Notes under the pieces: generated by a model
Database searches by the model: none
Told to the model about the DNA's origin: nothing
The model's input: only the letters and a program-made list of their open reading frames with translations
Made by a program: the position numbers and the translations under genes
Part shown: one piece after another, positions 36,335-60,303 of the stretch
Layout of the letters: each line of letters begins with the position of its first letter
Numbering within the stretch: the stretch's first letter is position 1
Assembly: GCA_913050115.1 (NCBI GenBank)
Contig: CAJWZU010000001.1
Location: 17,527-81,526 of the forward strand
DNA from: an uncultured Cellvibrionales bacterium
Lineage (GTDB): Bacteria > Pseudomonadota > Gammaproteobacteria > Pseudomonadales > Cellvibrionaceae
Direction: 5' to 3'
DNA: 64,000 nt

Positions 36335-36455
36335 GAGGAATCCTATTTTAATTTTATATAACTGTACAAGCATACATGCATTAATTCCAGCGACATCGAC
36401 TCTGATAGCCACAGGCAACTATCCACCCCCCATTAAAAGCTCTACAATTCCAACT

Positions 36456-37643
36456 ATGAATAACCACTGCCCCCCACCGTCATCGCTGGTTGCCGAAACG
36501 CCACTGCAAATCTCTCCTGCCCTAGCCACCACACTTGGGCTAGAAGAGGCCACGATGCTGGCGGTGTTCGGCAACCTGCTGCACTACGGCGAGCCTATCG
36601 CCCACAATGGTTTGCAATGGCTAGAAGTTAAAGAGCAGACCATTGAACGCACCATGCCCTTCTGGAACGACCTAGATGTGCAGCGAATTTGTAAAAGCTT
36701 GTCTGATAAGGGCGTGATTATTCTCGGCTCTGCGCCCTACGCAAGTTGCCGCGTTATTCAATTCGCCCTCAACGAGCAAGCGGCACAGCCACTGACCGCG
36801 CCCGAGCAAAAACTGGCCACGCCAAAAAGCCGCGCCCACAATCAGGTCGCTCAAGGCGCCAATCGTATTTCGCCGCAGTGGCAGCCCAGCGACGATGTGA
36901 TGCGCCGTATTGCTCAACACAATATTCCCGAACAGTATGTGCGTGATCGAATAGCCGAATTTGTCACCTACTGGAGCGAGCGCGCCGAGGCCCATCACTC
37001 GTGGGGTTCCAAATTTATCAAACAGGTATTACACCACTGGCAAGAGCACCAAACTCAGCAGTCGCGCCAACAGCGAGTTAGTCGCGAGCGCGAGCAGGAG
37101 CGCTTTATTCAAGCTGATACCGAAGGTCCCATTGCCGCGGGCTGGCGTCCGAGCCCGGATGCATTGGAAATACTGCTCAAACACGCAGCCATAGAGGCTC
37201 ACTTTGTTGAAGAGGCCATCCCAGAGTTTATTATCTATTGGCAAGAAAAAGGCGTAATCACCAACACTTGGAACAGCAAATTTATCCAGCATGTACGCCG
37301 CCAGTGGGCACGCTATAGCAGCACTGTAGAGCACAACAGTGAAGCCAAATTGCTGGCTGAAAACTGGCGGCCGAGTGAAGATGCTATCGATGTGCTGCGA
37401 CTGGCCAATATCGATTTGGATTTTGCCCGCCAACAACAGCCCGACTTCGTGCTCTACTGGCGCGATCGCAAAGAAATCCACAACGCCTGGAACAGTAAAT
37501 TTGTGCAGCACTGTAAATATCACTGGGCCAGACGTCATCAGATGGCGACACAGAGTGCAGCAACCCCCGGCACAAACCCAAGCGGCAACACCCGCGAACG
37601 CAGTTTGAACGACGATTTAACCGATCGCAGTTGGGCAACATAA
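36456..37643 (+). CDS. Protein with three DnaT-like (ssDNA-binding, primosomal) repeats
   Basis: Start at ATG 36456. Three repeats of about 60 aa occupy roughly nt 36867-37046, 37134-37316 and 37356-37535. Each has W(Q/R)PS.D......I......(E/D)F..YW.......H..W.SKF.QH, resembling the E. coli DnaT C-terminal block DWQP...FIAYWQAEG...QWQQKL. Confidence 0.7.
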   Translation: MNNHCPPPSSLVAETPLQISPALATTLGLEEATMLAVFGNLLHYGEPIAHNGLQWLEVKEQTIERTMPFWNDLDVQRICKSLSDKGVIILGSAPYASCRVIQFALNEQAAQPLTAPEQKLATPKSRAHNQVAQGANRISPQWQPSDDVMRRIAQHNIPEQYVRDRIAEFVTYWSERAEAHHSWGSKFIKQVLHHWQEHQTQQSRQQRVSREREQERFIQADTEGPIAAGWRPSPDALEILLKHAAIEAHFVEEAIPEFIIYWQEKGVITNTWNSKFIQHVRRQWARYSSTVEHNSEAKLLAENWRPSEDAIDVLRLANIDLDFARQQQPDFVLYWRDRKEIHNAWNSKFVQHCKYHWARRHQMATQSAATPGTNPSGNTRERSLNDDLTDRSWAT

Positions 37644-37860
37644 GGTCAAGCCCAAAAGCACATATAAAGAATATTTACCGCAGAGGGTAGGTGGTAAGGT
37701 CGCGGAAAGGCTGACAACAGAAAGCATCAGTCAATACTCATGTTATATTTAACCACATAGATTAAATCTTTCTGGCACTTGAGCATTGAAGAACACCCTC
37801 AGACCTTTTTTGTGGTCATATCCACCGATATTTTTACAGTATTTAAACCGGACAGCAGCA

Positions 37861-38541
37861 ATGCAAGACAGTAAAGACTTAATCAATCAAGTTGCAGGCC
37901 AATTAAAAAAGCAGGCGTCTAATCACGTGGCGTCAGCAGCACCCGGCCGCTCACAGCAGGGTAATCGTACACCGCCCAGCGACACAAAGATTGATGCCAT
38001 CAATCAAATCTTTACCCTGTTTCGTGTTAATTACCACAACCAGTATTACAAGGCCTTCAGCGACACTGAAACCCTCATAACCGCCAAACGTCTGTGGATG
38101 GAGTCTCTCGGCTATTTTGATACCGAAGCATTACTGCGCGGCGCCAAGCGTGCTATCGAGACCAGTGAATACCTGCCGACCTTAAAGAAGATGATCGACT
38201 GCTGTCAGGGCGACCTCAATCATCATGGCCTGCCCAGCGCCCACAACGCCTACATAGAAGCCTGCCGCGCACCCAGTCCTAAGAGTAGTTACAACTGGTC
38301 GCACTCGGCGGTTTACCATGCTGGCAAAATCAGCGACTGGCACTTTATCGGTAACAATATCCAGCGTATCGCCTTTCCAATTTTTGAGCGCAATTACCAA
38401 CAGTTGTGCGAGCGTATTATTAACGGTGAAAAACTGCCCCCGCCTGAAGTTAAAGCGCTGCCAGAAACTATTGAAACGCCACTCAGCGGTAAAGAAAATC
38501 ACCAGCGCATGGCCGAGCTGCGTAAAAGTATGGGGTTGTGA
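37861..38541 (+). CDS. Replication protein P-like protein (lambda P family)
   Basis: Start at ATG 37861. It is co-linear by eye with lambda P: INQIF..., RLWMESL, YLPTLKKMIDCC, GLPSAHNAY..AC, and the INGEKLPPPEVKALP tail. Confidence 0.65.
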   Translation: MQDSKDLINQVAGQLKKQASNHVASAAPGRSQQGNRTPPSDTKIDAINQIFTLFRVNYHNQYYKAFSDTETLITAKRLWMESLGYFDTEALLRGAKRAIETSEYLPTLKKMIDCCQGDLNHHGLPSAHNAYIEACRAPSPKSSYNWSHSAVYHAGKISDWHFIGNNIQRIAFPIFERNYQQLCERIINGEKLPPPEVKALPETIETPLSGKENHQRMAELRKSMGL

Positions 38542-39820: not shown

Positions 39821-40422
39821 ACACCTGGGTTAGTCTATACCCTTGACTGTCATGAAAATAATGGCGGTAAGCTGTTTAACGCTATCAGCACTCTTGGTTT
39901 GGTAGTGTGCGAGAAGTTAGTTACCTTTGCTACCGCCACGAAAGGACCTGCGTAAAAACCTACAGAAATAATGATAATCAGCGGAGCCGTTTAATAACAC
40001 TAGATGATCACTTTACTTTATTCCTGTACGAACTACTGTCTAGTCATTTATACCGTTTAAGAGGATCATTGATTGCTGCGCAGGCGGATCAAACACTACT
40101 GGGTTACAAGCGAATTATTGCTAGTTGATGGCTGCTCTGAAGTTTCCTAGATCTAAAATTATTAACAGTATGGCGTCTATAAAAGCCAGTTATAACCCTA
40201 TTACCTGTAGTGTGGTAACAGAGTATAAAAAATAAACTTCTTAACTATTGGGCGTTACTGCGCACAAAAAATACGACTATAAAAAGACACGGATACTAAT
40301 TGTTTAATAGGCAACAATCAGCCCGATCAGTAAATTACTAATAATACTTTACATCGTAATAAGACAAACCTTAATTTTGTTTAATTTACAAATGAATATC
40401 AACACAAGTATTTAAAAGTATA

Positions 40423-40683
40423 TTACTTATTCGATCTATTTTTATACTGTGTTGGACAATACCCTCGGGTCACATCATCGCCACGCAGTTTTTTATGTTT
40501 AGTTGAGCGGCCGCTAACTCTTTCTCGCCACAACCTAAAACTTCTTGGTTTTAAACGGCTACGCATAAATTTCACCACATCAGACTCAATCATATTGAAC
40601 TGATGTTCTATGGCTTCAAATGGAGTTCGGTCTTCCCAAGCCATTTCTATAATTCTTGATTCTTCATCGATAAGAAATTGCAT
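40423..40683 (-). CDS. TIGR03643 / DUF2805 family small protein
   Basis: 86 aa with MAWEDRTPFEAIE..FMRS.LKP.SFRLWRERV as I recall for this family. It is usually linked to photolyase genes. Confidence 0.7.
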   Translation of the reverse strand: MQFLIDEESRIIEMAWEDRTPFEAIEHQFNMIESDVVKFMRSRLKPRSFRLWRERVSGRSTKHKKLRGDDVTRGYCPTQYKNRSNK

Positions 40684-40745
40684 AAAACCAACCTATAATT
40701 TATTAATCTAGACTTACAAAGATAGTAATTCAACTCAGACATTTC

Positions 40746-42296
40746 TTATAAATCATTTATATTATTCAGTAGATAAGTAGCACGGTCTCTAATTTCAACT
40801 TTCTTAGAGTCCTCCATCTTATCCCAGTTTCGCACCGGAAAACTCATGCGGTGGTTTGAGGATAACTTATCATAGTTAGTGTCAATGAAATTCCAATATA
40901 AGCTATTTAGTGGGCAAGCATTGTCACTGATCTTTTCTTTAACGTTATAGCGACAGCCTTTGCAATAGTCACTCATTTTATTAACGTAATTACCACTAGC
41001 AGCGTAAGGCTTTGTTGCAATCCAACCACCATCGGCGAAGAGTGCCATACCTCGTGTATTAGGCAGTTCAACCCATTCAATGGCATCGATATAAATACCT
41101 AAATACCATTGATCGACTTGCTCCGGAGAAATTCCAGCAAGCAGGGCAAAGTTGCCTGTAATCATTAATCTTTGAATATGATGAGCATAGGCATGCTCAA
41201 GTGATTGCGATATTGCACTTTTTAAACATTGCATGTTTGTTTCACCGCTCCAAAAGAAATCCGGCAAATCACGATGAGCGCCTAAAAAGTTTTGCTTGGT
41301 ATAGTTTGGCATATTAACCCAATACATACCTCGTACGTATTCTCGCCAACCAAGAATCTGTCTAACAAAGCCTTCAATTTGTGACAGTGTTATTTTTCCA
41401 TCTGACTTTTCATAGAATGAGATAGCAGTATTAATTACTTCCATCGGAGCAAGCATTTTACAATTTATTGAAAAGCTAAGACGGGAATGATATAAGCTCC
41501 AAGCATAGGGGGATGCTATGGTCATAGCATCCTGAAAGTTACCAAAATTTGGTAACTGATGCTCGCAAAAAAAATCCAATAAAAGCAGTGACTGCTGACG
41601 ATTAATTGGATATGCAATATTTATCGACTCATTACCTATGGTTTTAATATTATGCTTTTTTATACGCTGTAAAAAATCATCTGCTGGGTTGTCAAATATT
41701 AATGGTTTTGGAATGAGCTTGAGATCATTTTTTTTAAATGACTTTCTATTATTAGCGTCGAAATTCCAAGCATCACCTTCTGGTTTTTCACCGTTCATTA
41801 AAATAGAAAACCGTTTACGCATTGTGCGATAAAAATTCTCCATTCTTACGTGTGTACTTGGTTTAAAATAACTGTGCAGATCATCAAAAGGCAATAGAAA
41901 ATGTTCACTATCAACTTGATGAACTGTTATATCAAGGTTTTTTGATAAATCACACATTTGCTGCTTTAATCTATATTCATCAGGGCTCTGAAATGTGAAT
42001 GCTGCACATGAGTATTTTAAGATCAACGATTTTATTAATTCGGTAAGATCTTGAAAACCTTGAGTGTCATCTAATGTCAAATAACAGACACGATGCCCTT
42101 TAGATTCAAGCTGTTGCGCAAAATCGCTCATAGCAACAAAAAAGGCGGTGACTTTTTGAATGTGGTGTTTAGTGTAACTTGCCTCTTGATTGAGCTCAGC
42201 GATGAGATAAACAACATCAGGGTCGACATATTCGAACCAACTGTGCTTTGGATTAAGCTGGTCTCCTAATATAAGCTTTAAATGTTTTGCCTTCAT
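40746..42296 (-). CDS. Cryptochrome/photolyase family protein, FeS-BCP type (probable (6-4) photolyase, PhrB/CryB-like)
   Basis: 516 aa with the 'photolyase-related' architecture. The C-terminal cysteine set YCKGCRYNV...DNACP fits the 4Fe-4S ligands of this class. Confidence 0.75.
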   Translation of the reverse strand: MKAKHLKLILGDQLNPKHSWFEYVDPDVVYLIAELNQEASYTKHHIQKVTAFFVAMSDFAQQLESKGHRVCYLTLDDTQGFQDLTELIKSLILKYSCAAFTFQSPDEYRLKQQMCDLSKNLDITVHQVDSEHFLLPFDDLHSYFKPSTHVRMENFYRTMRKRFSILMNGEKPEGDAWNFDANNRKSFKKNDLKLIPKPLIFDNPADDFLQRIKKHNIKTIGNESINIAYPINRQQSLLLLDFFCEHQLPNFGNFQDAMTIASPYAWSLYHSRLSFSINCKMLAPMEVINTAISFYEKSDGKITLSQIEGFVRQILGWREYVRGMYWVNMPNYTKQNFLGAHRDLPDFFWSGETNMQCLKSAISQSLEHAYAHHIQRLMITGNFALLAGISPEQVDQWYLGIYIDAIEWVELPNTRGMALFADGGWIATKPYAASGNYVNKMSDYCKGCRYNVKEKISDNACPLNSLYWNFIDTNYDKLSSNHRMSFPVRNWDKMEDSKKVEIRDRATYLLNNINDL

Positions 42297-42321
42297 GTAT
42301 CTACCTTATTATGGAGATTTT

Positions 42322-43860
42322 TTATTTACTGAGTCTAAGCGGTTTTTTAGACTTGCGAACATGTTTCGCTAAAATACGTTGAGCTTCTACTTTTGTATCA
42401 AAACGTTTCCTGAAACCCCACAATATATCTCTGGCAAATTTACCTGTTTCTTTAATGTCAATCATAGGCTGAGGATAGCTCTTACCTAGATCAAACTGGT
42501 ATAAAACTTGTTCCATTAAAGACAATACCCATGGTGTATGTATTATCTCGTTAGGTAGCTGAGATAACTCTGGCACCCATTGACGAATAAAAAAACCGTC
42601 CTTGTCTTGTTCTTGTGATTGTTTAACAGGATTATACACTCTGATAGTATTCATACCTGTTACCCCTGATTGCATCTGAAATTGTGGGTAGTGAATACCT
42701 GGCTCAAAATCTAGAAAATATTTCGCTAAGTGCATAGCGCCAAGCCGCCAATCAACGAACAAATGATGACACAAAAAACTTACTAGCATCGATCGCATAC
42801 GAAAGTTGATGTAGCCTGTTTTTTCTAAACAGCGCATACAAGCATCAACGAGTGGATACCCTGTTTGAGCTGTTTTCCATTTTGTTAAACGTTCCTCAAT
42901 GCTCATCCCCATATGTATTTCTGGAAATTTAAGATTATTGTAGGCGTTATTGACAGGTCGCCACTGCATTTGGTGTTCACTTTCAAACTTTTGAATAAAG
43001 TGACAATGCCAATGTAATCTTGAGGCTAAAGCATCTAGTGGACGCTTCCAGCCAACTTGAGACCTTTTTAACAAAATTGTTTGATAGAACTGCCTCAAGC
43101 TTATGTTGCCCCAAGCTAAGTAAGGCGATAAGCGCGAGCAGCTTCGCCGACTTGCTAAGGGCTTGGATATATCAGACTGATAGTTTTTACCGCGTTTATT
43201 TAAGAATGATTGCAGTGTTCTAGACGCCCATTGTTCTCCGCCCTTGAGCATGAATTCATTCGGTATTGACCATGACTCAGGCAGCGTATGCTGAATTAAC
43301 TTATCCAAATCACTGACGTTAACAAGTGCCGATAACGATAAGTTTGGATGACATAACGGTGCAGTCATCACTTTACGCCAGTCCTTGTCCCAGTCGATTC
43401 TATTTTTTTTCCCTCGAATGACTGCGCCTGACTGGTATTCTCGCCAATTTACTTTGCGCGCGCGGCACCATTTGTTAACGTTTTTGTCCCTGGCATAGGT
43501 ACAAACTAAACCTATTTCTTCATGGCTAAATAAGTTCAACACATGAAATAAAGTGTTTATTTCATTAAGGCCATCAATTGCATCACCAAAAAAAACATAA
43601 ACACGTGTATTAAATTTTTCTAGCTGAATATTAATGTCTTGTATTGATTGCCACACAAAACGCCAATGCCTTTTATCATAATGAGGATCATCTATTAAAA
43701 TAGGTTCGAACGCGTAATAAAGTAATGTCAGACCAGATTCTAATGAATCCATTAAAGCGTGATTATCGCTGATTCGTAAATCACGCTTTAACCAAACAAC
43801 ATTAATATCTAGATTTAAACCCCTATAGACCTGTGTATTTTTATCTATGCCGTTAGCCAT
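42322..43860 (-). CDS. Cryptochrome/photolyase family protein (FAD-binding; class uncertain)
   Basis: 512 aa. N-terminal photolyase alpha/beta domain ([16 protein letters not shown]) and a C-terminal FAD domain ([11 protein letters not shown]...[14 protein letters not shown]...DWRLGA). Confidence 0.8.
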
Positions 43861-45214
43861 TGTCTTTGGCCATTGTTACTGGCCAGTCTGCTGCGTCAAC
43901 AGAGTCTAAAGGCTGATTGGATAAAAAATATTTATCACACGTTGAAGCCCACTTACTTTGATACCTACCGTCAGGATCAAAAATAACAGCTTGCTTTTGA
44001 AGATTGAAATGCCTACCACCTCTAGGGTCAACTCCAACACCTGCAATATATTGCCAGTTACCCCAATTGACAGCAGCATCGTAATCTATTAACTGCTCTT
44101 CAAACCAAGCTGCACCATAACGCCAATCTACACTGAGTTCATTAACCAAACAACTCGCGACAATTTGACGACCTCTGTTACTTAAATAACCAGTGATTCT
44201 TAATTCATTCATACAGGCATTAACTAACGGATAAGGTGTCATTCCTAGGCACCACTTACTAAACCGTTCTGGATAAAATGATGTTAGTGGTTGGCTACTA
44301 GAAAGCCCTTTGAACATGTAAGTTTTAGCACCCACCTTAAAATGACACCACTGAAAGTATTCACGCCATAGAATTTCTGCTGCCAAGCATTCAGTTGAAC
44401 TGTTTTTACCTCGCTGAATTTCAAACTGGCTAACTGAAGACATAACCTGCCGAGGCGAAATACAGCCATAGCCGAGCCATGGAGATAACTTGCTGCTGCT
44501 TTCCCAGCCATCTAAGTTATTTCTAACAGTTTTATAACTTAATGGTAAATCAGAACTAAAATATTGGTAAAGTTGCTTTATAGCCGATGTCTCGCCGCCT
44601 TCAAATACCATACCATTTGTCGGGTATTTGTGAGCCTTAACAGGTAACCAATGGGGCCTAACTATGGCCGGTGCTGGCACAGATTTAAACTGACTTGGTA
44701 AGGTTTTAATTGCAGGAGAAATATTGGGTATTGCAACATTATTCATTATTTTTTTAAATTTTGAATAACTTACTGGTAGCTGCTGAAGTTCAAAAGGCAG
44801 AAGCCCATGAGTAAACAAAGTGAACTGCTCAACTTTGTTTACTAACACTTGAGGAAAATTATCGCCTAATTGATTGATGAGCCTATTTTCATAAGTGCCA
44901 GGTAAATGAGTGGTAATTACATCAGTAATTTGGTGTATTTCACAAAGGCTCGCCAAACTAGGCAAAGTGTCACCATAAACAATATGCAGCTGTTGACCCA
45001 GACTGAGTAAGCTTTGATTGAAATTACTTAAACAACTTTGTAAGAAATTCCAACGATTTGCACCTATTGGCTTGGATTGATAGTTGTTAGGTTTGAACCA
45101 TTTTTGATCAACTACATAGACGCAAAGCAGGTAATCACTATCGCTGGCTAACTTAAGAGCCAAGTTATCGTTGATCCGCAAATCTTTAGTTAACCAATAT
45201 AAGGTGCGCTTCAT
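43853..45214 (-). CDS. Cry-DASH family cryptochrome / ssDNA photolyase
   Basis: 453 aa with the DASH-typical block [49 protein letters not shown]. Its stop overlaps the next gene's ATG by 8 nt. Confidence 0.8.
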
Positions 45215-45701
45215 GATTATAGTTCATACCTTAAATACCACTTATACGATCATATGCAACAATTAGATCAACATAGCGAGGTTATTATGTGGTTATGCTA
45301 GGTTTAGGAAGGAAAAGTGAGTTGCAACTAAGCGTTTTTCTGTCTGAGCACAGCAGGAAATGGCGGGCTAGGCATTGAAGCAAAATAAGGCCTCTTTCGA
45401 CAGAGGGCTATCAGTGCCTAATAATTAATAGTTGATGGCAACTATTAAAAAATTCGTCGATATATTTACAATATTGACTATTGGCAACCTTATAGCGCTA
45501 GAGCAGGGCTACTCATATAAGATAGCCCAAACCTTGGATAACGGGAATTGCCCTGCTGTTAAAGGGTGTATATAAGTATTGGCACGCGGCAAGAGAAAGC
45601 ACTAAGCTAATGTTAAGCCATCGAATGAGCGACGCAGCGAGAAATAAAGCTGAATAAGTGCCCGTTATCCAATCATACGAGTAGATAACGTACTAAGCAT
45701 G

Positions 45702-46949
45702 CTAATCCAGCCATAGACTATAGACTTCGGCAAGTCGGTTCTTTATGCGATATTCACGCTCATCTTGTGCATCTAGTAACGTAAATGCTTTTTTAATAAA
45801 CTTTTCATTGCCTGACGCTGCAATCTTCATAATTTGAAAAGTGACTAATTTATAGACATTGTATAGTTCTTCAATGAGTTCGCACAAATCATCAAATTCT
45901 GGTTCTTCGTAATCCAGTTCTTTCCAAAAATAGGCTAAGCAATGCTCATAAGCATATTTTCGAGTAGAAAGTACTGGTATCTGCTCAAGTGCTAGTGCCA
46001 CGTTTTTGAGTTCAAGGACCCTTCCTTTTGCATCTTTACCCGCCACAAACATTTGCAGAATCTCGCGCGACGCAGAATTAAGCCCATTAAAGTTAGGCTC
46101 AACGCATTGCTGGTAAAAATTATTCACAGCCTCGTGTGTAAAAGGCCTGGCATGAGTATCATTAACAAGCAGGCCACCTTCAACGGTAGGCTGCTTAAAT
46201 GCATTGAGTATTCGATCTTTATCAACGATACCCTCCCAACGATAATCGGGATCATAAATAAACCATTGCGTTGGGTCGTTAGTTTTACCAACCATCACAT
46301 AGTGCGGAAAAGGGTCATGGTCAAACTCTTTATCAATACCAGGCAGGTGGTACATATCGAGCATTACTATAACGTGCTCAGCAGCTAATTTATTATCGAC
46401 AAGATAAGCTAATTTTTCTGCATTTTCAGCCTTAGATACCGAGGTGCTATACCAAGACTCAACTGTCATACCATATAGGGAAGTAAAGCCGTCCAACATA
46501 TACTGATGGCTAATATCATCGCTATGATAATTAAGTGTCGCTTCATCACTGACAATAACTTCTGCATCTGGAACACAAAAGTAATAAGGACGGTGATCAA
46601 GCTGCTTTTGCTTCACCAGCTCGCAGAGGCAGCTCGCTAAACAATGAACTTTTGCGTCGACATATTCTTCCAGTTTGCCATACCATTCTGGCAAAACCTG
46701 GTCTTCAAAGAGAGCATCAGCCAAATCACGGACCGTGTTAATTTCGTCGAGCGCACGTGTTTCATCCGATGCATAAAGTGCATCATTCAACGCGAGGCGA
46801 TCTAGCATATTAATAACATCAAGCGAGTTTAATGCTAATTCATCCAATAAAAGACTATTAGCATTAAAGCCGAGCAGATCAGTATGACTTTTTACATTAC
46901 TCAGATCTTGGTAAATACACTCAGATACTTGCTGTTTTGTTTTAATCAC
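45702..46949 (-). CDS. Orphan protein: carrier-protein-like N-terminus fused to a roughly 320-aa domain of unknown function (BtrH/papain-like transferase suspected)
   Basis: 415 aa. The GTG start overlaps the upstream stop (GTGA). Residues about 5-85 follow an acyl/peptidyl-carrier helix pattern (LLLDELALNSLDVINMLDRL ... INTVRDLADALFE). The remainder has a His-Cys motif (KVHCLASCLCE). Last gene of the NIS operon. Confidence 0.6.
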   Translation of the reverse strand: MIKTKQQVSECIYQDLSNVKSHTDLLGFNANSLLLDELALNSLDVINMLDRLALNDALYASDETRALDEINTVRDLADALFEDQVLPEWYGKLEEYVDAKVHCLASCLCELVKQKQLDHRPYYFCVPDAEVIVSDEATLNYHSDDISHQYMLDGFTSLYGMTVESWYSTSVSKAENAEKLAYLVDNKLAAEHVIVMLDMYHLPGIDKEFDHDPFPHYVMVGKTNDPTQWFIYDPDYRWEGIVDKDRILNAFKQPTVEGGLLVNDTHARPFTHEAVNNFYQQCVEPNFNGLNSASREILQMFVAGKDAKGRVLELKNVALALEQIPVLSTRKYAYEHCLAYFWKELDYEEPEFDDLCELIEELYNVYKLVTFQIMKIAASGNEKFIKKAFTLLDAQDEREYRIKNRLAEVYSLWLD

Positions 46950-48250
46950 GATAGCTCTACTAATCCAGATTTAACATTAGAATCACGTTTTGACACTGTT
47001 TGCAAAGCTTTATCAACCGGCTTGCCATTTCCTATTATCTGCATTTTAGTAGCCAAGCCCATCGTGCCCAAAAGATTAATAAACGGCACAGCATCAAGCT
47101 CTTCTACGTTAACCATTTTATTAATATTCCACACACCTTGAGCGATTAAAATGGCGGCCGCAACCGGTGGAACACCAGCCGTAAAGGCAACTGCCTGTGT
47201 ACCAATGTCAGCATAGGTTTCTTGATGATCACAAATATTGTAAATAAAGACTTCTTTTTTGTTAGCGTCTTTTTTACCTTTAATCAATGTACCTATACAG
47301 GTCTTACCGGTATAACCCTCAGCTAAGCTAGCAGGGTCTGGCAAGCATGCTTTTAGTACATGTAATGGAACAACTTTTATACCATCAGCAGTAGTTATTT
47401 CTTCGATGCCTAATAAACCTACTTCTTTGAATACAGTTAAGCAGTTGATGTAATGGTCATTAAAGCCCATCCAAAATCGAACATCTTTAACACCCTCAAT
47501 GAAATTTGGCAGAGAGTGCACTTCATCATGACCCATCAAATAGAGTTTTTGCTTACCCACAATCGGCATATCAAATTCCATTGAGCGAGAATGATGTGGA
47601 TAACTACGCCACTGACTATCTTCTAAACACCCTGCGTCATCGATAATCTCACGCAGATTAATTTCAGGGTCAAAGTTAGTCGCAAAAAAATGACCGTGAT
47701 TACCTGCATTAACATCTAGAATATCAATCGAATCTATCGAGTCAAACTCATGATCTTGTGCATATGCACAATAGGCATTAACTACACCTGGGTCAAAACC
47801 CACACCTAAAATAGCCGTTATGCCTTTCTTTTCACAAATGGATTTCTTGGTCCATTCAAACTCTTCATACCATGGGTATTCAGAGTTAAGTACAGCCGCT
47901 TCTTCATGTACAGCAGTATCAAGATAAGCCGCATCTGCTTCAATACATGCCTCGAGAATTGTCATGTTGGCAAAAGCGGTACATACATTAATAACTATAT
48001 CTGACTGTGTTTCTTTAATTAATGCGACAATTGATGACTTATCAAACGCATCTACTGTTCTTGCAAAAATAGAAAATCCTTCTTCAAAGTTATTGTTCCT
48101 ATTTTTTATATCTTCAATTACAGCTTCACATTTTGATAAAGTACGTGAAGCAAAACATACTTGGGAAAAAATATGTGAATACTGTGCACATTTTTGAGCT
48201 GATGCTATACCTACAGCACCAGCGCCAATAACTAATATACTTTTTTTCAT
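46946..48250 (-). CDS. Carboxy(nor)spermidine dehydrogenase (saccharopine-dehydrogenase family)
   Basis: 434 aa. Rossmann N-terminus KKSILVIGAGAVGIASAQKCAQ, with overall co-linearity to Vibrio-type CANSDH as I recall it. Adjacent to nspC. Confidence 0.8.
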   Translation of the reverse strand: MKKSILVIGAGAVGIASAQKCAQYSHIFSQVCFASRTLSKCEAVIEDIKNRNNNFEEGFSIFARTVDAFDKSSIVALIKETQSDIVINVCTAFANMTILEACIEADAAYLDTAVHEEAAVLNSEYPWYEEFEWTKKSICEKKGITAILGVGFDPGVVNAYCAYAQDHEFDSIDSIDILDVNAGNHGHFFATNFDPEINLREIIDDAGCLEDSQWRSYPHHSRSMEFDMPIVGKQKLYLMGHDEVHSLPNFIEGVKDVRFWMGFNDHYINCLTVFKEVGLLGIEEITTADGIKVVPLHVLKACLPDPASLAEGYTGKTCIGTLIKGKKDANKKEVFIYNICDHQETYADIGTQAVAFTAGVPPVAAAILIAQGVWNINKMVNVEELDAVPFINLLGTMGLATKMQIIGNGKPVDKALQTVSKRDSNVKSGLVELS

Positions 48251-48302
48251 TAAATTCTCATTTTAGCAAACGGACAGATTACATATAAATTTTAAATATT
48301 CA

Positions 48303-49454
48303 TTAAGAGAGGCAATCTCTAAAATCCTCATAACCAAAAGTTTTCACGAGCTTAGTTATGCCACTAATTTTTTTCAAATATATCGAGGGCATTTTTATAC
48401 CATTAAAATAATTTTTCTTTACCATCGAATATCCTCCGACATCAGAAAATGTTAATGTATCGCCTATCTTTATAGGCCTATTAAACTGATAGACACCAAA
48501 AATATCACCCGCTAAACATGTACGCCCGGCGACACGATATAAATTGGCTAAATTAATTTTATCTACTGGAATTGAGTTTTTATCATCGAGCGCATCAGCC
48601 CCTATAAGTTCAGGAGTATAATCATAAACCAGTGCATCTAATAAATGTGTTTCAACGCCAGCATCAACGATTAGAGAAGGAACTTCATTATCTACAATGT
48701 CGATAACAGTCACTACCAATGAGGTAGATTCGGTGACAGAAGCCTCGCCTGGCTCTAAGTAAATCTGCACTGAATACTTATTAGCGAGATCCTTTAGACG
48801 TGCACTAAATTCATCTAAAGGGTAGCCCTCTGTAGTAAATGCAACGCCGCCACCTAGACTTAGCCATTCCAGCTGTTGCAGTAACTGGCCAAACTTTATT
48901 TCTAACTCATCAAGTTGTGTATTAAAACTATGAAAATCTTCATTTTCACAATTCATATGCAGCATTGCACCATTAATCTTGTCTGAGATGTCAAGAGGTA
49001 GCTTATCTTTGGTTACGCCTAGGCGTGAATATCTAGAAACAGTGTCACTCAACAAATATTCAGAAAAACCAATTTGAGGGTTTAAACGCAGCCCAATGGA
49101 TACGCCGCCAATTTTTGCCTTATCAATATGGCGATCGAGCTGACTTAATGAATTGAAAATTATTTTCCCACAGACACTAACAACCTCATCAATTTCGTCA
49201 TCAGTATATGCCACTGAATAACCATGAGTTTCGCCGCCAAATTTTTCACTACCGAGCTTTGCCTCATAAAGACTACTACTAGTGGTACCTACTAAATAAT
49301 CCTTCATAAAATCAAAAGCACACCAGCTAGAAAAGCACTTTAACGCTAATACGGATTTAGCACCGCTTATATCACGCACAGATTTTATTTTTTGCATAGC
49401 TGTAAGCATGCGATTTTCATCAATTAGATAATAAGGAGTTTTCATTATGATCAT
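48303..49454 (-). CDS. nspC: Carboxy(nor)spermidine decarboxylase
   Basis: 383 aa with TPYYLIDE...GAKSVLALKCF...GTTSSSLYE..LG.E.FGGETH.YSVAY.DDEIDEV, the NspC pattern in PLP fold type III. Confidence 0.85.
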   Translation of the reverse strand: MIIMKTPYYLIDENRMLTAMQKIKSVRDISGAKSVLALKCFSSWCAFDFMKDYLVGTTSSSLYEAKLGSEKFGGETHGYSVAYTDDEIDEVVSVCGKIIFNSLSQLDRHIDKAKIGGVSIGLRLNPQIGFSEYLLSDTVSRYSRLGVTKDKLPLDISDKINGAMLHMNCENEDFHSFNTQLDELEIKFGQLLQQLEWLSLGGGVAFTTEGYPLDEFSARLKDLANKYSVQIYLEPGEASVTESTSLVVTVIDIVDNEVPSLIVDAGVETHLLDALVYDYTPELIGADALDDKNSIPVDKINLANLYRVAGRTCLAGDIFGVYQFNRPIKIGDTLTFSDVGGYSMVKKNYFNGIKMPSIYLKKISGITKLVKTFGYEDFRDCLS

Positions 49455-49494
49455 TCGCTCTTTAGTAAAAACTTATTTTGCAAAACTTTATTCA

Positions 49495-51435
49495 CTAGCA
49501 AACACTTAAACTAGGTGCAGATACGTCTTTGGCTAAATACTTATTCGTAATCTTCATTGCATCCGTAAGGCTCGCATCACAAGCTAAAGCATTGGTAACT
49601 TCATGGTCAAACCAAACAGTATGTAGCCCTTGCTTAATTTTCTTTTCTAATAATGATTCAATGTTGACCATAGCTCGCCCGATGTTAATCGCTGCAAATC
49701 TTTCTTCATTGGTTACACCTGATTCTTTATATGCTTCAATTACTGTGTTAAATAATAACCAAAATCTTGATTCCGAAAAAACGTAATGTTTTTCTAATAT
49801 GAACGAAAGCTCACTTAAATTAAAGACACAAACTGCATCAAGAAATAATTCGCAAAGGTCATCGGTATCTTCACTAATAAAGCCCTCATCAATTGAACAT
49901 TCGTTAAACCAAGAATCTACAGAAGCAGGATTTGGTCTATTTTCTGGGTGTACTAAAAATTCAGTCAAATATTCAGTATCTTCATGAAAATCACGCATAG
50001 CAATACGCGTAGGCCAGCCATTTTTGTGTATAAGAACAAGATTTTGAGCATGCGATTCAAAGCCAATCCCATGATGAACCAGCAAATGCCAAATGGGTAA
50101 AACAGCCACTTTTAGTAACTGCTTAAGCCATGACTCGATACCGTATTCATCTAGCCAATCAGCAATAAAAAGACGCTCATCTGACTCTATAAGCATTAAA
50201 GCTGTAAAAGGAATAGCAGCCTCTCGCTCTCTTACCTCATCTAGAACGCTAGTTCTAAAGATTGCCCCAATAAGCCCTTCTTCTGCCTCAGCCACATACG
50301 CAGATCTTGCTTCACAGTCATAATCTCCTGCAGTTGGAATATACGAAATAGCCGCATATTCACTAAGCATTACTAAGTGATCCTGTTCTTGCAAAAAGGC
50401 ATCTTCACTTACAATATTTTGCAACCAATTGGACAAAACTGGCGCGGTAATCACAAAGTGTTCAGGTAAATTACGATTTGATGATGTCGACATAACATTC
50501 ATCGGTAACTTAACATTTGCTTTCTTAGGATTAGTAACATTAATTACTGTACGTAGCGATTGGCTGGCTTGGTAAAAATCACCTGCACTGCCCAAATTGA
50601 TAATTTCGCCACGGGCTATGGCAGCAATAACACCTGCATTATCAGTTGATTCTGGCTCATTGGATAAAATTGAAGCGACCTGCCAAGGATGTAATGGCAT
50701 CAAACCAAATGCAGCCCAGTTAGCACCGCGTTGATGTAAAGCTTGAGTCAGCACATCATAAGTCTCGCTAATTTCTTGTTGCCAGAAATTAGCTTCATCT
50801 ATTGGAAAATTACATTGATAGTCTTGGCGATGAATTGCGAACCAGACGAGTTGAAATTGATTAGCGGCTTCGGGGCTAAATGCTCGCTGATCTTCAACTG
50901 TGAAACCACGGCGCGCTTTAAAGCATGGATGATAAAGATGTCCCTCATGAATGGCTGACTCAAGCGCAAGAAAATCTAATTTACGTCGCACATTTTTCAA
51001 GTGAGGTAAATTAACTGAGTTCCACGAACATAAAGCAATAGTTTGCTCAAGCTCAGCAAGTAAATCCGCCTTAGACTTGGCCTCCATATTTAATGGCTCG
51101 ACCAAATCGTAAATAGAAGCCTCATGCCATTTATTGTGACTAAGCGCCTGAACTGAACCTAGTGCAATACGCACTCGATCAAAACTACTAATAAATGCTG
51201 TACAACGTAATTGACATTTGCCAATTGAGACAGATAGCTGCCGATCATATATTGTCTCGGAATCTGTGTTGCAAGTGTCCAGCGGCGATGACTTAAAAGG
51301 CACTATTTTTTCGTAAAGCAAGGCCTCTAAAAACTGTTTTACCAGGCGCCGTTGAGCAACTGAAGCGTCTTTAAAACAGGCCTGCTGTTTAAATAACTGA
51401 TCTTTTTCTCGTTGCGATTGAGACTTTACCGCCAT
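49495..51435 (-). CDS. IucA/IucC-family NRPS-independent siderophore (NIS) synthetase
   Basis: Start at ATG 51435 with GGGGAG 6 nt upstream. Family blocks HEGHLYHPCFKARRGF and GFESHAQNLVLI, plus an FhuF-like C-terminal region. Confidence 0.88.
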   Translation of the reverse strand: MAVKSQSQREKDQLFKQQACFKDASVAQRRLVKQFLEALLYEKIVPFKSSPLDTCNTDSETIYDRQLSVSIGKCQLRCTAFISSFDRVRIALGSVQALSHNKWHEASIYDLVEPLNMEAKSKADLLAELEQTIALCSWNSVNLPHLKNVRRKLDFLALESAIHEGHLYHPCFKARRGFTVEDQRAFSPEAANQFQLVWFAIHRQDYQCNFPIDEANFWQQEISETYDVLTQALHQRGANWAAFGLMPLHPWQVASILSNEPESTDNAGVIAAIARGEIINLGSAGDFYQASQSLRTVINVTNPKKANVKLPMNVMSTSSNRNLPEHFVITAPVLSNWLQNIVSEDAFLQEQDHLVMLSEYAAISYIPTAGDYDCEARSAYVAEAEEGLIGAIFRTSVLDEVREREAAIPFTALMLIESDERLFIADWLDEYGIESWLKQLLKVAVLPIWHLLVHHGIGFESHAQNLVLIHKNGWPTRIAMRDFHEDTEYLTEFLVHPENRPNPASVDSWFNECSIDEGFISEDTDDLCELFLDAVCVFNLSELSFILEKHYVFSESRFWLLFNTVIEAYKESGVTNEERFAAINIGRAMVNIESLLEKKIKQGLHTVWFDHEVTNALACDASLTDAMKITNKYLAKDVSAPSLSVC

Positions 51436-51679
51436 AAATAGCTCCCCGCTGCATTGCAGACATAAACCAGTAAAACGCTTCGGCAACAGCACAGAACCAT
51501 TGCGATTGATTCTTATTCAAACAAACCGGGAACTTTATAGCGTTTGATGCGAGCACTCCAAGACTGTTGCAAATGTTACAACACATGTCTTACCAATTTT
51601 GGCTTGAGTCTGGGCGGCTATTCACTTGTAAAAAGTACAGCATATGTAAAATCTAAGCTGTAAATCTTGTAACAATCGT

Positions 51680-51698
51680 ATTAATGAGAATCATTAAC
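51680..51698. promoter_or_regulatory. Fur box in the divergent NIS promoter region
   Basis: attaatgagaatcattaac matches the GATAATGATAATCATTATC consensus at 15 of 19 positions. The core is a perfect inverted repeat ttaatga-N3-tcattaa. It lies about 90 nt upstream of the ATG at 51788. Confidence 0.65.
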
Positions 51699-51787
51699 AC
51701 GTACATTGGCGACCATATAAAAGTATCGTGTCTCTTATACTGGGGTACATGAATACACTGATGCTAACTTAACTTGGTTAAACCGAT

Positions 51788-53713
51788 ATGACAGTCAGTC
51801 CGTGGACAATTGCCGAAAACGCATCTTTTAATGTATTTGCTAACAGCTACTTAGCTGAAGTTGATAGTGGCTGCATAATTAAAGGTAGCGCGGGTAACGA
51901 AAGCATCCTCTTACAGCTTCAAAATTCAGAGCAGCTGCTTCGTATTGAACTCATTCAAGCCTCTTGTTTTGGGCCCAGTAAACTGGGAGAAGCCTTCTCC
52001 TGTAGAACACCCGATAATTTCAGCCATACCCCTAGCACCACAGAATATTCATCGCTGCAGTGGAGGCAAGCCGATAAACTATTTCTAATCTCACTTTTAG
52101 TAAGAGAGATCTATGCTAAGCAAGCAGAGCGCCTCAAGAATAACGCGAGCCTTAGTAAAATTGAGCAAGGATCCCTTGCTAATGGACAAATAAAGGCCAA
52201 AGAAAGCGAGCTATTGATGCGTATACATGAAAGCTATCAAGCAATGGCCACTTATCTTGAAGCTAGACAAGGCGATAGCACACTCTCTTCTTTATCGTTT
52301 ATTCAGAGCGAACAAAATATTTTATTTGGCCACTGGTTACATCCCACACCAAAAAGTAAATTGGGACTAGCATTCTGGCAACAGGCTCACTATTCACCGG
52401 AACTTAAAGGACATTTTGCCCTTCACTATTTTGCAGTTGATCAAAGCATTGTTACTCAAGCGAGCCTATTTGAAAAGAGTACAAGCGATCTCATATATGA
52501 CGATCTAGCACCCTTTTTAACATCTGATGAGAAGCGAAAAGTCGATGCATTAGTCGACTCTGGCTGCGCACTGATACCCGCTCACCCTACACAAGCTCAC
52601 TATTTACTCCTGCAAGGTGAAATACGTACACTTATGAGTCGTAGTAAAATTCACTATTTAGGTGAATTGGGCTCTGAGCACACGGCAACCTCTTCGGTTA
52701 GAACCCTCTATGCTGAACACTTACCTTGGATGTATAAGTTTTCTATACCTGTGAAAATTACCAATTCACTTCGTAGCAATTTTAAAGATGAGCTTGAAGA
52801 TGGTATGGCAGTGGAGCTGTTTCTAAGAGAAAAAGGCTTCTTTGAACAACATCCGCGTTTCAAAATGCTTGAAGACCCAGCCTATATAACAGTAAATTTA
52901 CCCAGTAATCCCGAACTTGAATCTGGTTTTGAAACTATCTTGCGACGTAATTTTCTGTATCAATCAACCGAGGCCAATAGCACTTGCTCAATTTTAGCTT
53001 TGGTTCAAGAGCCTGTTGAACTTAACTCAAATGGCGAAGGTAAAAGCGCGCTAAATAAGCTTATTATTGAACTCGCGGAAAGAGATCAGCAGACAACCGA
53101 GACAACCGCATTAAAGTGGTTTGAAGCGTACTTTAAATGCTCTGTCGAGCCTCTACTCAGTCTTTATGATGATTATGGTATTGCTCTGGAAGCACATCAG
53201 CAAAACAGTCTATTAGATCTAGAATCTGGATATCCAAAAGCATACTATTATCGAGATAATCAGGGTTTTTATGTATCGACACGTTATCAAGAAACCTTCG
53301 ATTTTATTGACTCAATGAGAACTATGTCGGATCTCATCTATGATGATGAAAATATATTTGAAGCATTCTCATATTATGTATTTATCAACCAATGCTTTGC
53401 TGTGATGCATAGGCTCTCAATTGACAATCTCATATCGGAAGAAACTTTAAAAAATTGGCTGATAGAAAGATTACTCGTTTTACAATCACAATTTAATGGT
53501 ATTGCTAAGCTATATATCACCCATATTCTTGCACAGCCTAAAATTGCATTTAAAACTAATTTGTTAACCAGAGTATTAGATATAGATGAATGTTCTTCAG
53601 ACTTAGAAATGGATGTATATGGAACAATTAATAATCCAATTTTTGTTAAATCATTAACTGACAAAGTCGATTCAAAAGATCTATCTGCTAATGAAGTTGA
53701 GTCTATCAGCTAA
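51788..53713 (+). CDS. IucA/IucC-family NIS synthetase
   Basis: 641 aa with family blocks LFGHWLHPTPKSKLG and ALEAHQQNSLLDL. Transcribed divergently from the other synthetase. Confidence 0.88.
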   Translation: MTVSPWTIAENASFNVFANSYLAEVDSGCIIKGSAGNESILLQLQNSEQLLRIELIQASCFGPSKLGEAFSCRTPDNFSHTPSTTEYSSLQWRQADKLFLISLLVREIYAKQAERLKNNASLSKIEQGSLANGQIKAKESELLMRIHESYQAMATYLEARQGDSTLSSLSFIQSEQNILFGHWLHPTPKSKLGLAFWQQAHYSPELKGHFALHYFAVDQSIVTQASLFEKSTSDLIYDDLAPFLTSDEKRKVDALVDSGCALIPAHPTQAHYLLLQGEIRTLMSRSKIHYLGELGSEHTATSSVRTLYAEHLPWMYKFSIPVKITNSLRSNFKDELEDGMAVELFLREKGFFEQHPRFKMLEDPAYITVNLPSNPELESGFETILRRNFLYQSTEANSTCSILALVQEPVELNSNGEGKSALNKLIIELAERDQQTTETTALKWFEAYFKCSVEPLLSLYDDYGIALEAHQQNSLLDLESGYPKAYYYRDNQGFYVSTRYQETFDFIDSMRTMSDLIYDDENIFEAFSYYVFINQCFAVMHRLSIDNLISEETLKNWLIERLLVLQSQFNGIAKLYITHILAQPKIAFKTNLLTRVLDIDECSSDLEMDVYGTINNPIFVKSLTDKVDSKDLSANEVESIS

Positions 53714-53857
53714 GTAACAACATGTTTATAATGGCCGCTAAATTAATAAAGTAAAAATTGACTAATATTTTAAGCTTTATCAATTATTGGTAATGACATT
53801 AGTAGTTATTTTATTTTTTATGAGAAAGCTATTTAAATATTTATAACTTTAAACGGC

Positions 53858-53888
53858 GCTGATTGATGCAATCAGTCATATTTTTTTC
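53858..53888 (+). terminator. Probable rho-independent terminator after the plus-strand NIS synthetase
   Basis: gctgattg-atg-caatcagt stem followed by cata plus a T7 run. Confidence 0.5.
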
Positions 53889-54350
53889 CGATAAAATATT
53901 TATTTCATAACCGACTTTACTATGCCGAGAATTCAAGCGGCTTTTCGAAGTAATCTTTAGCTGTACTACCATGAATGGGGCGTACACTCACAACCCGTTT
54001 TTGACCTCAAGGATTACGGATTAATTTATTATCTAACTTAAACTGGTAATGCTTTTTATATCGAGCTGACGCCTCTTTTACAGATTTAGTATAACATTAC
54101 GTCAAAGCGTTGAGCTTGCCTTAATATATTGGCTAATAGACAACATATTTAAAATAATTACCCAGCAGCTATATATATTGCACTTTATCAATTCGATCCA
54201 GAGTCATCTGGTTAAAATAAATATAGGCTTCAGTTAACCGCTGATATAGCCGTTGCTATTAGGGTAAACCTTATTTATAAATAACTTCTTATATATACTA
54301 ACTAATCGAATTTATTAGAGTCTATATTAGGCGACTAGCTTTCTAGAAAA

Positions 54351-55742
54351 TTATTCTTCGGGTGGAGTAAGGCGTCGTGGGCTATACATATAAAACAATA
54401 CCATAGCAATTATGAACGTTAGTCCTTCAGCTATAGGAATGGCATACAAATAATTATTATCATCGAAAATAATATAAAATAGCAACACTAAGCCTATGGG
54501 TAAAAACAAAGAACGCAAGCTTGCAATAACCGAAGACTGTAATGCCAATTCAGCTGATGTTAAGTAAGCACTGGCTAACACATTAAAGCCACTAAACAAA
54601 AATATTGGCCAAACAATATGAATAAAATCGAGCGTTAGAGCTTGGGTTTTTGTCGCTCCATCCTCGAGAAAAAAGTTTACTAACGTTTCTTCAAAAGAAA
54701 ATAATATACAGATCTGAACAACAGTCAATGTTGCGATACAAGCACCAGCCATTTGCATGAACTTAACGACACGTTCGATTTTATGCGCACCAAAATTTTG
54801 TCCTAATAACACATGCATAGAATCCACTATCCCGTAATAAACCATTAAACTTATATAAATAAAATAATTTATCACACTAAATGCAGCAATACCTTGTATG
54901 CCACTTTGGAGATTGATAACCCAGTGAAAAACTAAGATAACAAAACCTATAGAAGTTTCATTTATAAATTCTGAGAATCCATTACAGCCAGACTGTACTA
55001 ATGTTTTAAAGTTAAATTTTGGCCAGTATAATTTCAAATTAGTATTAGGTATTTTGAAATAACGAAAAATATATAATAATTGCACAACCTCAGCACAGAG
55101 CGTTGCCCATGCAGCTGCTTGAATACCATAGCCCAAGTAGCCTATAAACAAAGTATTTAAACAAATATTAGTTATAGCACCAAGTATAAGAGCTTTCATT
55201 CCATGTTGAGGTTTATTATCTGCTCTAAAAAAATAATAACAAACAAGCCCACAAAGCTGAATAACAATGGCAGGTGCAAGAACCACGAAATATTGGTTCA
55301 TCAAATCGAATAGGGACCGATCAGCTCCTAAGCCGATAAATAAACTGTCACTAAAATACAACGAAATAGGTAACGCAATTAAATTAAAAGCCAATACTGA
55401 AAAAAATACCTGGCTGTAAATATTCGATGCGGTTTTAACGTCACGTTTTCCTATAGCAATACTCGCTTTGACTGAGCCACCGACGGCTAACATAAGTGCC
55501 AGACCAAATAATAGCCCAAAATATGGCACTAATAAGTTGACCGAAGCGAGGGCTTCCTCACCAATATATTTACCTACAAAAAATCCGTCAACAACAGCAG
55601 CAGTTGAAATAGCGAGCAAACTCAACGTTGAAGGAATGACAAATTTAAAAAAAGTCGAAACCACTGGTCCATCGACAGCGTCAACATCAATAATTTCGCC
55701 ATAGTCATTATATTGGATTTCTATGTTTTTCTGTTCAGACAT
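54351..55742 (-). CDS. MATE family efflux transporter
   Basis: 463 aa, about 12 TM segments with a MATE-like layout. Last gene of the MFP-RND-MATE operon, 14 nt after the RND gene. Confidence 0.8.
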   Translation of the reverse strand: MSEQKNIEIQYNDYGEIIDVDAVDGPVVSTFFKFVIPSTLSLLAISTAAVVDGFFVGKYIGEEALASVNLLVPYFGLLFGLALMLAVGGSVKASIAIGKRDVKTASNIYSQVFFSVLAFNLIALPISLYFSDSLFIGLGADRSLFDLMNQYFVVLAPAIVIQLCGLVCYYFFRADNKPQHGMKALILGAITNICLNTLFIGYLGYGIQAAAWATLCAEVVQLLYIFRYFKIPNTNLKLYWPKFNFKTLVQSGCNGFSEFINETSIGFVILVFHWVINLQSGIQGIAAFSVINYFIYISLMVYYGIVDSMHVLLGQNFGAHKIERVVKFMQMAGACIATLTVVQICILFSFEETLVNFFLEDGATKTQALTLDFIHIVWPIFLFSGFNVLASAYLTSAELALQSSVIASLRSLFLPIGLVLLFYIIFDDNNYLYAIPIAEGLTFIIAMVLFYMYSPRRLTPPEE

Positions 55743-55756
55743 AATATAGCTCTTTA

Positions 55757-58819: not shown

Positions 58820-58828
58820 GATCTCTGC

Positions 58829-59995: not shown

Positions 59996-60303
59996 GTTAT
60001 GTCACTTTATAGATAGTTAGGTAGAGAGTCTTTTAGGCACTATCTATTACTTATTGAACATCTGAGTATTTATTTGAATTAGGTAAATAATGCTGGATGC
60101 CAACGCAATTGAACGTGGAGTAAATTTCTTTGAACAAAGAATTAGTCTATCGTCATAAAAAACATCAGATGCGAATTATTATTATTTGACGATAAAAAAA
60201 CAGCATATTTACATATGTTACATATAAGTGAGCATGTCTATCAGCAAGCAATGGTTCTTATCGTAAACGTTAACGTAATATTCACTCTAGCGGTGTGGCG
60301 ATA

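Follow-up and report, generated by a model that had tools for sequence, protein, structure and literature searches.

The inspection of a 64,000 nt stretch of DNA from an uncultured Cellvibrionales bacterium (contig CAJWZU010000001.1; this whole stretch is hereafter called the window) identified an intact open reading frame (ORF) of 415 codons at positions 45702–46949 of the minus strand, a strand that an earlier analysis made from the letters alone (the sequence-only reading) had left unstated. The gene, here termed asbDE, very probably codes for an AsbD-AsbE fusion of the MllDE type, acting in a Fur-regulated, petrobactin-type siderophore pathway independent of nonribosomal peptide synthetases (NRPS). 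The sequence-only reading had described an orphan protein that combines a carrier domain and a BtrH-like transferase in one chain and could cap a polyamine amine by analogy with AsbD and AsbE. The core of that proposal is right, and holds more strongly than had been supposed: the relation to AsbD-AsbE is homology and not mere analogy, because the protein matches DUF6005, has AsbA and AsbB neighbours and adopts a CtaG/CcbD-type fold. Being a member of a known fusion family, it is neither an orphan nor the bearer of a new domain. Family membership, architecture, conserved catalytic and attachment residues, purifying selection and operon context were all observed directly; the chemistry, in which an acyl group bound to the carrier as a thioester is passed on to an amine of a polyamine, would follow from what AsbE and CtaG do. 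The truly unusual feature of the locus is the missing loading enzyme.

The region following the carrier had been regarded as an unknown His-Cys domain with no motif that could be named. Residues 99–414, however, matched the Pfam model DUF6005 (PF19468), which represents the AsbE family, with E=4e-114 and 381.5 bits (cutoff 25) over profile positions 2–314 of 327. PF19468 is the model used to detect asbE, the gene for the petrobactin aryl transferase (PMC11317620). An earlier survey of papain-like enzymes had likewise included DUF6005 among the papain-like domains and considered a link to siderophore synthesis probable. An AlphaFold model built on a 22-sequence alignment (model numbering equals protein numbering minus 1) had a mean predicted local distance difference test (pLDDT) value of 86 and showed a bipartite fold, with a papain-like alpha/beta half followed by a helical C-terminal half, an architecture described in PMC12865890. 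A Foldseek comparison with the Protein Data Bank (PDB) placed CtaG first (E=1e-8, probability 1.0), followed by AziU3/U2 and CcbD (1e-4). CtaG is a papain-like carrier-dependent ligase that follows a ping-pong mechanism via acyl-Cys11, with the participation of His128 and Asp144; AsbE, BtrH and the fusion MllDE have been named as having the same fold and triad (PMC12865890).

The segment KVHCLASCLCE of the window protein contains His102 and Cys103, and had been likened to BtrH-type (papain-like) enzymes. Cys103 does sit in the papain-like fold and was invariant in the family alignment (198/198), as were His216 and Asp233/235 (201/201 each). The spacings from Cys to His (113) and from His to Asp (17) compare with 117 and 16 in CtaG (C11/H128/D144). 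The Pfam model BtrH_N (PF14399) stayed below its threshold (E=0.11, 13.2 bits versus a cutoff of 29.7) and aligned only to the His-containing segment 170–234; the relation to BtrH is one of fold, not of family. PDB searches by sequence and by profile, performed with the whole protein and with a transferase profile, returned no CtaG, CcbD or BtrH, but only acyl carrier proteins (ACPs) for the N-terminus and spurious designed coiled coils. The possibility that the protein is a protease was considered and rejected in view of the carrier fusion, the siderophore synthetase context and the CtaG/CcbD-type fold.

A database search found 143 relatives of the window protein. Among the 120 homologues listed, most were 420–460 residues long with more than 90% query coverage, and the source names of some read ‘acyl carrier protein’, ‘phosphopantetheine-binding protein’ or ‘petrobactin synthase’. 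The GTDB species genomes, which do not include the window's species, provided 444 matches, the best of them 47% identical. Ranked by identity, the relatives form a ladder of 100, 85 and 75–76%, then 48% or less. The 85% step corresponds to locus L004 and the 75–76% step to L005 and L006; together with the window, these make up a clade lacking asbC, the gene for the adenylating enzyme that loads the carrier in related systems. A scan of metagenome contigs for further members of this clade recovered only the known contig (L087, the same as L004) and one 43% relative.

Comparison with the 85%-identical relative gave ratios of nonsynonymous to synonymous substitution rates (dN/dS) of 0.078 for the carrier and 0.073 for the transferase, at near-saturated dS values of 1.0–1.4. 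Since both ratios are this low, both domains are maintained by purifying selection. The clade nevertheless has its own signature: its four members all depart from the family at 20 columns where at least 85% of the other 196 sequences agree, the highest number among 12 sequence clusters (the other clusters of at least three members have 0–7). These include the replacements E204G, R205I, N207K and N210D in the loop preceding the catalytic His, where R205 and N207 are invariant in the 196 other sequences, and the aromatic replacements F151M, W154G, Y260L, F262V/I and H301F/Y, all of them found only in the clade. Residues outside the triad that are otherwise invariant in the family (the LPERxNxFN loop, W154 and H301) are therefore not kept. 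Judged by distance from the catalytic His, residues 204–210 would correspond to segment 105–127 of CtaG, described as an entrance pore and carrier-docking site (PMC12865890).

The sequence-only reading had assigned residues ∼5–85 to a four-helix carrier domain. The AlphaFold model agrees, showing four N-terminal helices (4–16, 41–53, 61–64 and 72–82, model numbering). Foldseek matched the N-terminus to ACPs with probability 1.0 and template modelling (TM) scores of 0.6–0.66 normalised to the ACP. A profile of the family N-termini matched solved ACPs as well (E=3e-10), and in this alignment the invariant Ser coincides with the attachment Ser of the ACPs. In the model this residue (Ser42, within LALNSLDV) is the first of helix II. 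Modelling followed by structure searches thus yielded both a carrier and a cysteine-transferase fold (ACPs, CtaG and CcbD).

The carrier Ser was present in 197/197 aligned relatives. The residue before it was D in 194, T in two and N in the window protein only, which confirms the motif LALNSLD, with its N before Ser, as already read from the sequence; the L004 protein has T at this position. The canonical D-S-(L/V) attachment motif is hence replaced by N-S-L. Many NRPS carrier domains have H before Ser, so an N-S motif need not exclude modification. The window protein alone gave no match to the phosphopantetheine-binding model PF00550 at E≤1, nor did its isolated N-terminus at E≤0.01, while 21 of 24 aligned family N-termini matched it; only the carrier domains of the asbC-less clade missed it. 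At matched transferase divergence, the carrier domain of this clade was 7–12 percentage points more diverged than that of other lineage pairs. The linker that follows it showed identities of 12/13 to 13/13 within the clade. Since Ser is invariant and the carrier dN/dS is 0.078, the non-canonical N-S site does not denote a dead or exotic carrier. The same ratio argues that the domain is used, phosphopantetheinylation itself being predicted.

The asbDE gene is the last of a likely Fur-regulated minus-strand operon composed of asbB, CASDC (carboxy(nor)spermidine decarboxylase), CASDH (carboxy(nor)spermidine dehydrogenase) and asbDE, with asbA transcribed divergently (Table 1). The GTG with which asbDE begins and the TGA that ends the upstream saccharopine dehydrogenase-type gene overlap as GTGA (...tcGTGAtt...), just as the sequence-only reading had it, and the N-terminus, (V/M)IKTKQQ, agrees with that of homologues having an ATG start (MIKTK...). 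The dehydrogenase-type gene matched the NCBIfam carboxynorspermidine synthase model with E=1e-138, although below its curated cutoff, and is 66% identical to the in-cluster copy of Bacterioplanoides; the decarboxylase-type gene is 66% identical to the in-cluster copy of L003. The cluster contains the two NRPS-independent siderophore (NIS) synthetases, AsbA- and AsbB-type, of a petrobactin-type cluster. AsbB is 47% identical to Bacterioplanoides AsbB (gene callers elsewhere, as in L001, place its start 19 codons downstream, giving 646 residues), and AsbA is 46% identical to the Bacterioplanoides protein over 644 residues. The MATE protein, found in most related loci and 62% identical to MatE of the Bacterioplanoides asb cluster, is a likely siderophore exporter; an RND system also lies beyond asbA, with the MATE pump. 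The Fur-box-like site between asbB and asbA has 15 of the 19 consensus positions and ranks first in the 64-kb window, against ∼0.3 such sites expected per shuffled window. A search of the window for the Fur consensus at up to three mismatches found no site, this one having four.

Table 1. Positions in the window of asbDE, of its predicted domains and residues, and of the neighbouring cluster features
Feature	Position	Strand	Description
asbDE-type gene (415 aa)	45702..46949	minus	Carrier domain plus DUF6005/AsbE-type papain-like transferase; from ORF, Pfam, AlphaFold and Foldseek
Carrier (AsbD-like) domain, residues 1-85	46695..46949	minus	Predicted phosphopantetheine-attachment Ser42, codon 46824-46826
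Inter-domain linker, residues 86-98	46656..46694	minus	Predicted disordered; pLDDT <50 at model residues 87-98
DUF6005/AsbE-type transferase, residues 99-415	45705..46655	minus	Papain-like alpha/beta N-terminal half, helical C-terminal half
Catalytic-triad codons	Cys103 46641-46643; His216 46302-46304; Asp233 46251-46253	minus	Invariant in the family
Loop before catalytic His, residues 202-210	46320..46346	minus	LPGIDKEFD; elsewhere in the family LPERENKFN
Carboxy(nor)spermidine dehydrogenase/synthase-type gene	46946..48250	minus	Pfam Sacchrp_dh_NADP and Sacchrp_dh_C; stop overlaps asbDE start
Carboxy(nor)spermidine decarboxylase-type gene	48303..49454	minus	NCBIfam nspC, 406 bits (cutoff 409)
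AsbB-type NIS synthetase	49495..51492	minus	First operon gene; Pfam IucA/IucC and FhuF; NCBIfam SbnF-like, 2e-91
Fur-box-like site ATTAATGAGAATCATTAAC	51680..51698		Divergent asbB/asbA promoter region
AsbA-type NIS synthetase	51788..53713	plus	Pfam IucA_IucC and FhuF; divergent from asbB
MATE-family efflux protein	54351..55742	minus	Pfam MatE; conserved companion of asb clusters

The sequence-only reading had noted that no adenylating enzyme is encoded nearby. This was confirmed for ∼84 kb, made up of the 64-kb window and the genes called in the 10 kb on either side of it. In the window, no AMP-binding (asbC) gene was found by a Pfam analysis of all ORFs of at least 120 residues, and tblastn gave no match at 1e-5; an AP_endonuc_2 (asbF) gene was likewise absent by Pfam on the same ORFs and by tblastn. 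The called genes of the two 10-kb flanks included neither asbC nor asbF, and the gaps at 45214–45702 and 53713–54351 held no remnants of either and no small hidden genes. Further, no TonB-dependent receptor, siderophore-binding protein or phosphopantetheinyl transferase (PPTase) was recognised in the window and its 10-kb flanks (L089, L093); the genes for uptake and for carrier activation must therefore lie outside this region, in keeping with a pathway distributed among several loci.

In 80 related loci fetched from GTDB genomes for comparison, asbC was always directly upstream of asbDE (80/80), while asbF lay within the flank in 68. The 12 loci that keep asbC and have no asbF within 10 kb belong to Neorhizobium (ten) and Rhizobium (two), and comprise L030, L032–L034, L037–L039, L042, L045, L047, L052 and L076. 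The gene supplying 3,4-dihydroxybenzoate (3,4-DHB) is thus sometimes unlinked in this 80-locus sample, the loader never. The order asbB-CASDC-CASDH-asbDE was common only to the close relatives L004, L005 and L006. Since these share it, the order without asbC is a stable arrangement of a small clade rather than a recent deletion.

A search with the AsbC of Bacterioplanoides identified a candidate loader, P0331, 51% identical to it. The contigs that encode P0331 are from the assemblies ERZ2779332 (TARA_SAMEA2621551 scaffold_1817) and ERZ27286455, and both of these assemblies also contain the window's 102-kb scaffold. The gene order in this locus (L097) is asbB’ (38% identical to the window AsbB), asbC and a second, asbDE-like gene, asbDE’. 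The product of asbDE’ has the carrier motif LAIESS, with E before Ser, and is 32% identical to the window protein over 143 residues; the family-invariant D of ‘GVWDAE’ is G in it. The asbDE’ sequence (L097 11373–11803; also in L098, L099 and L100) ends near the same codon, at about residues 132–143, in four independent assemblies, and because the breaks nearly coincide, they suggest that a repeat, a mobile element or a sequence varying between strains follows directly. No asbA was found in the 10 kb upstream of asbB’, so the visible part of L097 is partly complementary to the window locus.

The tetranucleotide correlation between L097 and the window was 0.95, the highest of all loci compared. 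The identity ladder of AsbC (100, 86 and 74, then ≤56%) mirrors that of AsbDE. The two loci also have in common an element matching at 18 of 20 nt, TAAATCTTGTAACAATCGTA in the window (51660–51679) and TAAAGCTTGTAACAATTGTA in L097 (7683–7702); 1/200 shuffles reached the same alignment score. In the window this element directly abuts the Fur-like box, while in L097 a weaker Fur-like sequence is found 8 nt downstream of it, upstream of asbB’. The element may serve both asb-like loci as an operator. Both loci come from Tara material, although the accessions of cluster members, labelled TARA_B100000809 and TARA_085_MES, provide no decisive link. When the sample overlap of L097 and the window was compared through ParE, most places were collapsed or without DNA. 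The correlation, the ladders, the shared element and the Tara origin are consistent with one genome, and a bona fide asbC is probably present in the same organism. The asbC of L097 is the best candidate for a loader, which would act in trans. The unusual loading chemistry that had been anticipated is not required, since a plausible asbC is encoded by another contig from this metagenome sample.

Taken as an AsbD-AsbE fusion, the protein would work as follows. Ser42 of the N-terminal carrier would be phosphopantetheinylated, and an adenylating enzyme encoded elsewhere, for which the asbC of L097 is the best candidate, would load an aryl acid onto it as a thioester. In canonical systems, AsbC loads 3,4-DHB. 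The tethered thioester would enter the C-terminal papain-like domain and acylate Cys103, aided by His216 and Asp233. A primary amine, belonging either to spermidine or norspermidine or to a citryl-polyamine intermediate, would then resolve the acyl-enzyme. The two upstream genes would provide the polyamine and the neighbouring AsbA- and AsbB-type synthetases the citryl intermediates, and the final product would be exported by the nearby MATE or RND pumps.

Several observations weigh against this assignment. The window and its 10-kb flanks have no asbC, asbF or PPTase gene, while asbC adjoins asbDE in every one of the 80 related loci. The window carrier domain reaches no Pfam PP-binding match when taken alone and has N, not D, before Ser, and the carrier of its clade has diverged faster than in other lineages. 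The 20 conserved positions replaced in the clade, among them R205, N207, F151, W154, Y260, F262 and H301, mean that the canonical 3,4-DHB may not be the acyl substrate here, or AsbC not the partner. Finally, one genome for L097 and the window is not proven, and since L097 also carries asbDE’, the window protein need not be the one served by the AsbC of that locus.

A rival explanation takes asbDE of this clade as a neofunctionalised paralogue that would attach a different, possibly non-aromatic acyl cap instead of the 3,4-DHB of AsbC, giving rise to a new petrobactin-like siderophore. The cap would come either from an unrelated ligase or acyltransferase acting as the loader or, in the form of acyl-phosphopantetheine, from acyl-CoA. 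In all four contig lineages that bear the cluster (the window with L001 and L002, L004, L005 and L006) asbC and asbF are absent, and the gene order has been rearranged to that of the window. The clade also leads the 12 clusters in changes at conserved columns (five aromatic positions together with R205 and N207), its carrier shows the excess divergence of 7–12 percentage points, its D-S motif has turned into N-S or T-S, and both domains are under strong purifying selection nonetheless. This explanation is improbable, however: the ∼84 kb examined offered no alternative loader candidate, a bona fide asbC probably occurs in the same organism, and P0003 and P0004, which also lack asbC, keep D-S. 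Possible, though still doubtful, is a split and duplicated pathway in which the window (asbA, asbB, polyamine genes and a divergent asbDE) and L097 act together, with a carrier-transferase retuned to a different acyl group or loader, leading to an undescribed asymmetric or differently capped citrate-polyamine siderophore. The retuning may have consisted of an altered carrier helix II, the change from D-S to N-S and the remodelling of the pre-His loop and of five aromatic positions.

That the gene is instead a decaying remnant, a non-functional relic left after the loss of asbC and asbF, with N in place of D marking a dead carrier, is very improbable. The missing genes, the non-canonical residue before Ser and the fact that the query alone has no Pfam PP-binding match would fit such decay. 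It is contradicted by the selection analysis (dN/dS ∼0.08 in both domains, at dS 1.0–1.4), on which a pseudogene or relic was rejected; moreover, the ORF is intact in every clade contig, Ser, Cys, His and Asp are all kept, the same reduced gene order persists across lineages only 75–85% identical, and the start overlap that couples its translation to that of the upstream gene persists. Even less credible is that the protein is truly an orphan, with a new kind of His-Cys domain and a carrier that loads itself or relies on some other chemistry without precedent; the lack of a nearby adenylating enzyme is the sole point in favour of this. The very strong DUF6005 match and the hundreds of relatives refute both the orphan status and the unknown domain, and the fold is known and its mechanism characterised.

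The AsbD-AsbE fusion favoured here has counterparts in several known systems. Such fusions have been reported in the methylolanthanin (MllDE), rhodopetrobactin and roseobactin loci (PMC11317620). Those of Methylorubrum extorquens (MllDE) and of the rhodopetrobactin and roseobactin loci have the same carrier plus DUF6005/AsbE architecture and Cys-His-Asp triad, and they too have AsbA- and AsbB-type NIS synthetase neighbours. However, these loci encode asbC (fused to asbB in mll) and asbF beside the fusion, whereas the window locus has neither. The fused homologues that were compared, from Rhizobiales genomes, are ∼35–37% identical to the window protein; the likeness to MllDE is one of architecture. 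Bacillus anthracis AsbE transfers 3,4-DHB from holo-AsbD to a spermidine amine. AsbD and AsbE of this species have homologous carrier and transferase functions but are separate proteins, and AsbD has D, not N, before Ser; compared with B. anthracis, the window cluster has its own polyamine genes, and asbC and asbF are unlinked. The Firmicute homologue of Lysinibacillus (L051) is also unfused.

The nearest relatives in sequence (45–48% identity) are found in the complete asb clusters of the marine Oceanospirillales Bacterioplanoides, Bermanella and Oleispira. They share asbA, asbB, asbDE, CASDC, CASDH and MatE with the window, the orthologues being 46–66% identical, but are arranged as PPTase-MatE-asbA-asbB-asbC-asbDE-asbF-CASDC-CASDH, whereas the window has a divergent asbA followed by asbB-CASDC-CASDH-asbDE and lacks PPTase, asbC and asbF. 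CtaG (closthioamide), CcbD (lincosamides) and BtrH (butirosin) have the same bipartite fold and triad and a ping-pong mechanism via acyl-Cys, at identities of 14% or less. Unlike the window protein they have no fused carrier, and the acceptor of CtaG is carrier-bound while AsbE-type enzymes use free amines.

The ParE of the organism is 86–87% identical to those of Maricurvus and Exilibacterium, which places it in the Cellvibrionaceae; its contigs come from Tara Oceans and other marine metagenomes. The block at 40001–60000 of the window (∼20 kb) has a GC content of 0.35–0.41, compared with 0.44–0.53 (mostly 0.46–0.53) in the first 40 kb, and this lower value suggests a horizontally acquired island. 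It holds three genes of the photolyase/cryptochrome family, the asb cluster and the MATE and RND efflux genes. The three photolyase-related genes are consecutive and lie directly downstream of asbDE (40746–45214, minus strand). They code for a DPRP-family protein of 516 residues and two DNA_photolyase/FAD_binding_7 proteins of 512 and 453 residues, whose genes overlap by 8 nt. Between these genes and asbDE is a gap of 488 bp, in which a weak hairpin resembles a terminator (45406–45391). Elsewhere, a single ORF at 36321–38541 contains three repeats of a DnaT DNA-binding domain (Pfam E=9e-68). At the TTG listed as its start, it overlaps the end of a RadA-like gene on the opposite strand, and it is followed by a gene matching the replication protein P of phage lambda, an unusual pairing of primosome and loader for a chromosomal context.

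The protein itself adds little: it extends the recently defined class of papain-like, carrier-dependent amide ligases (AsbE, BtrH, CtaG and MllDE) to an uncultured oceanic lineage of Cellvibrionaceae, and shows that a function already known stands behind the Pfam ‘DUF’ label. Of greater use is the cluster variant, the only case, among more than 80 loci examined, of a carrier-transferase under purifying selection without an adjacent loader, and one with substitutions at positions that are invariant elsewhere. The novelty is at the level of the variant: an unlinked loader, a retuned carrier and a remodelled pre-His loop, which could reflect a changed donor or partner. The variant offers a natural experiment on the residues that set donor and partner specificity in an enzyme class considered for the engineering of non-ribosomal amide bonds, and may point to a new petrobactin analogue in the open ocean.

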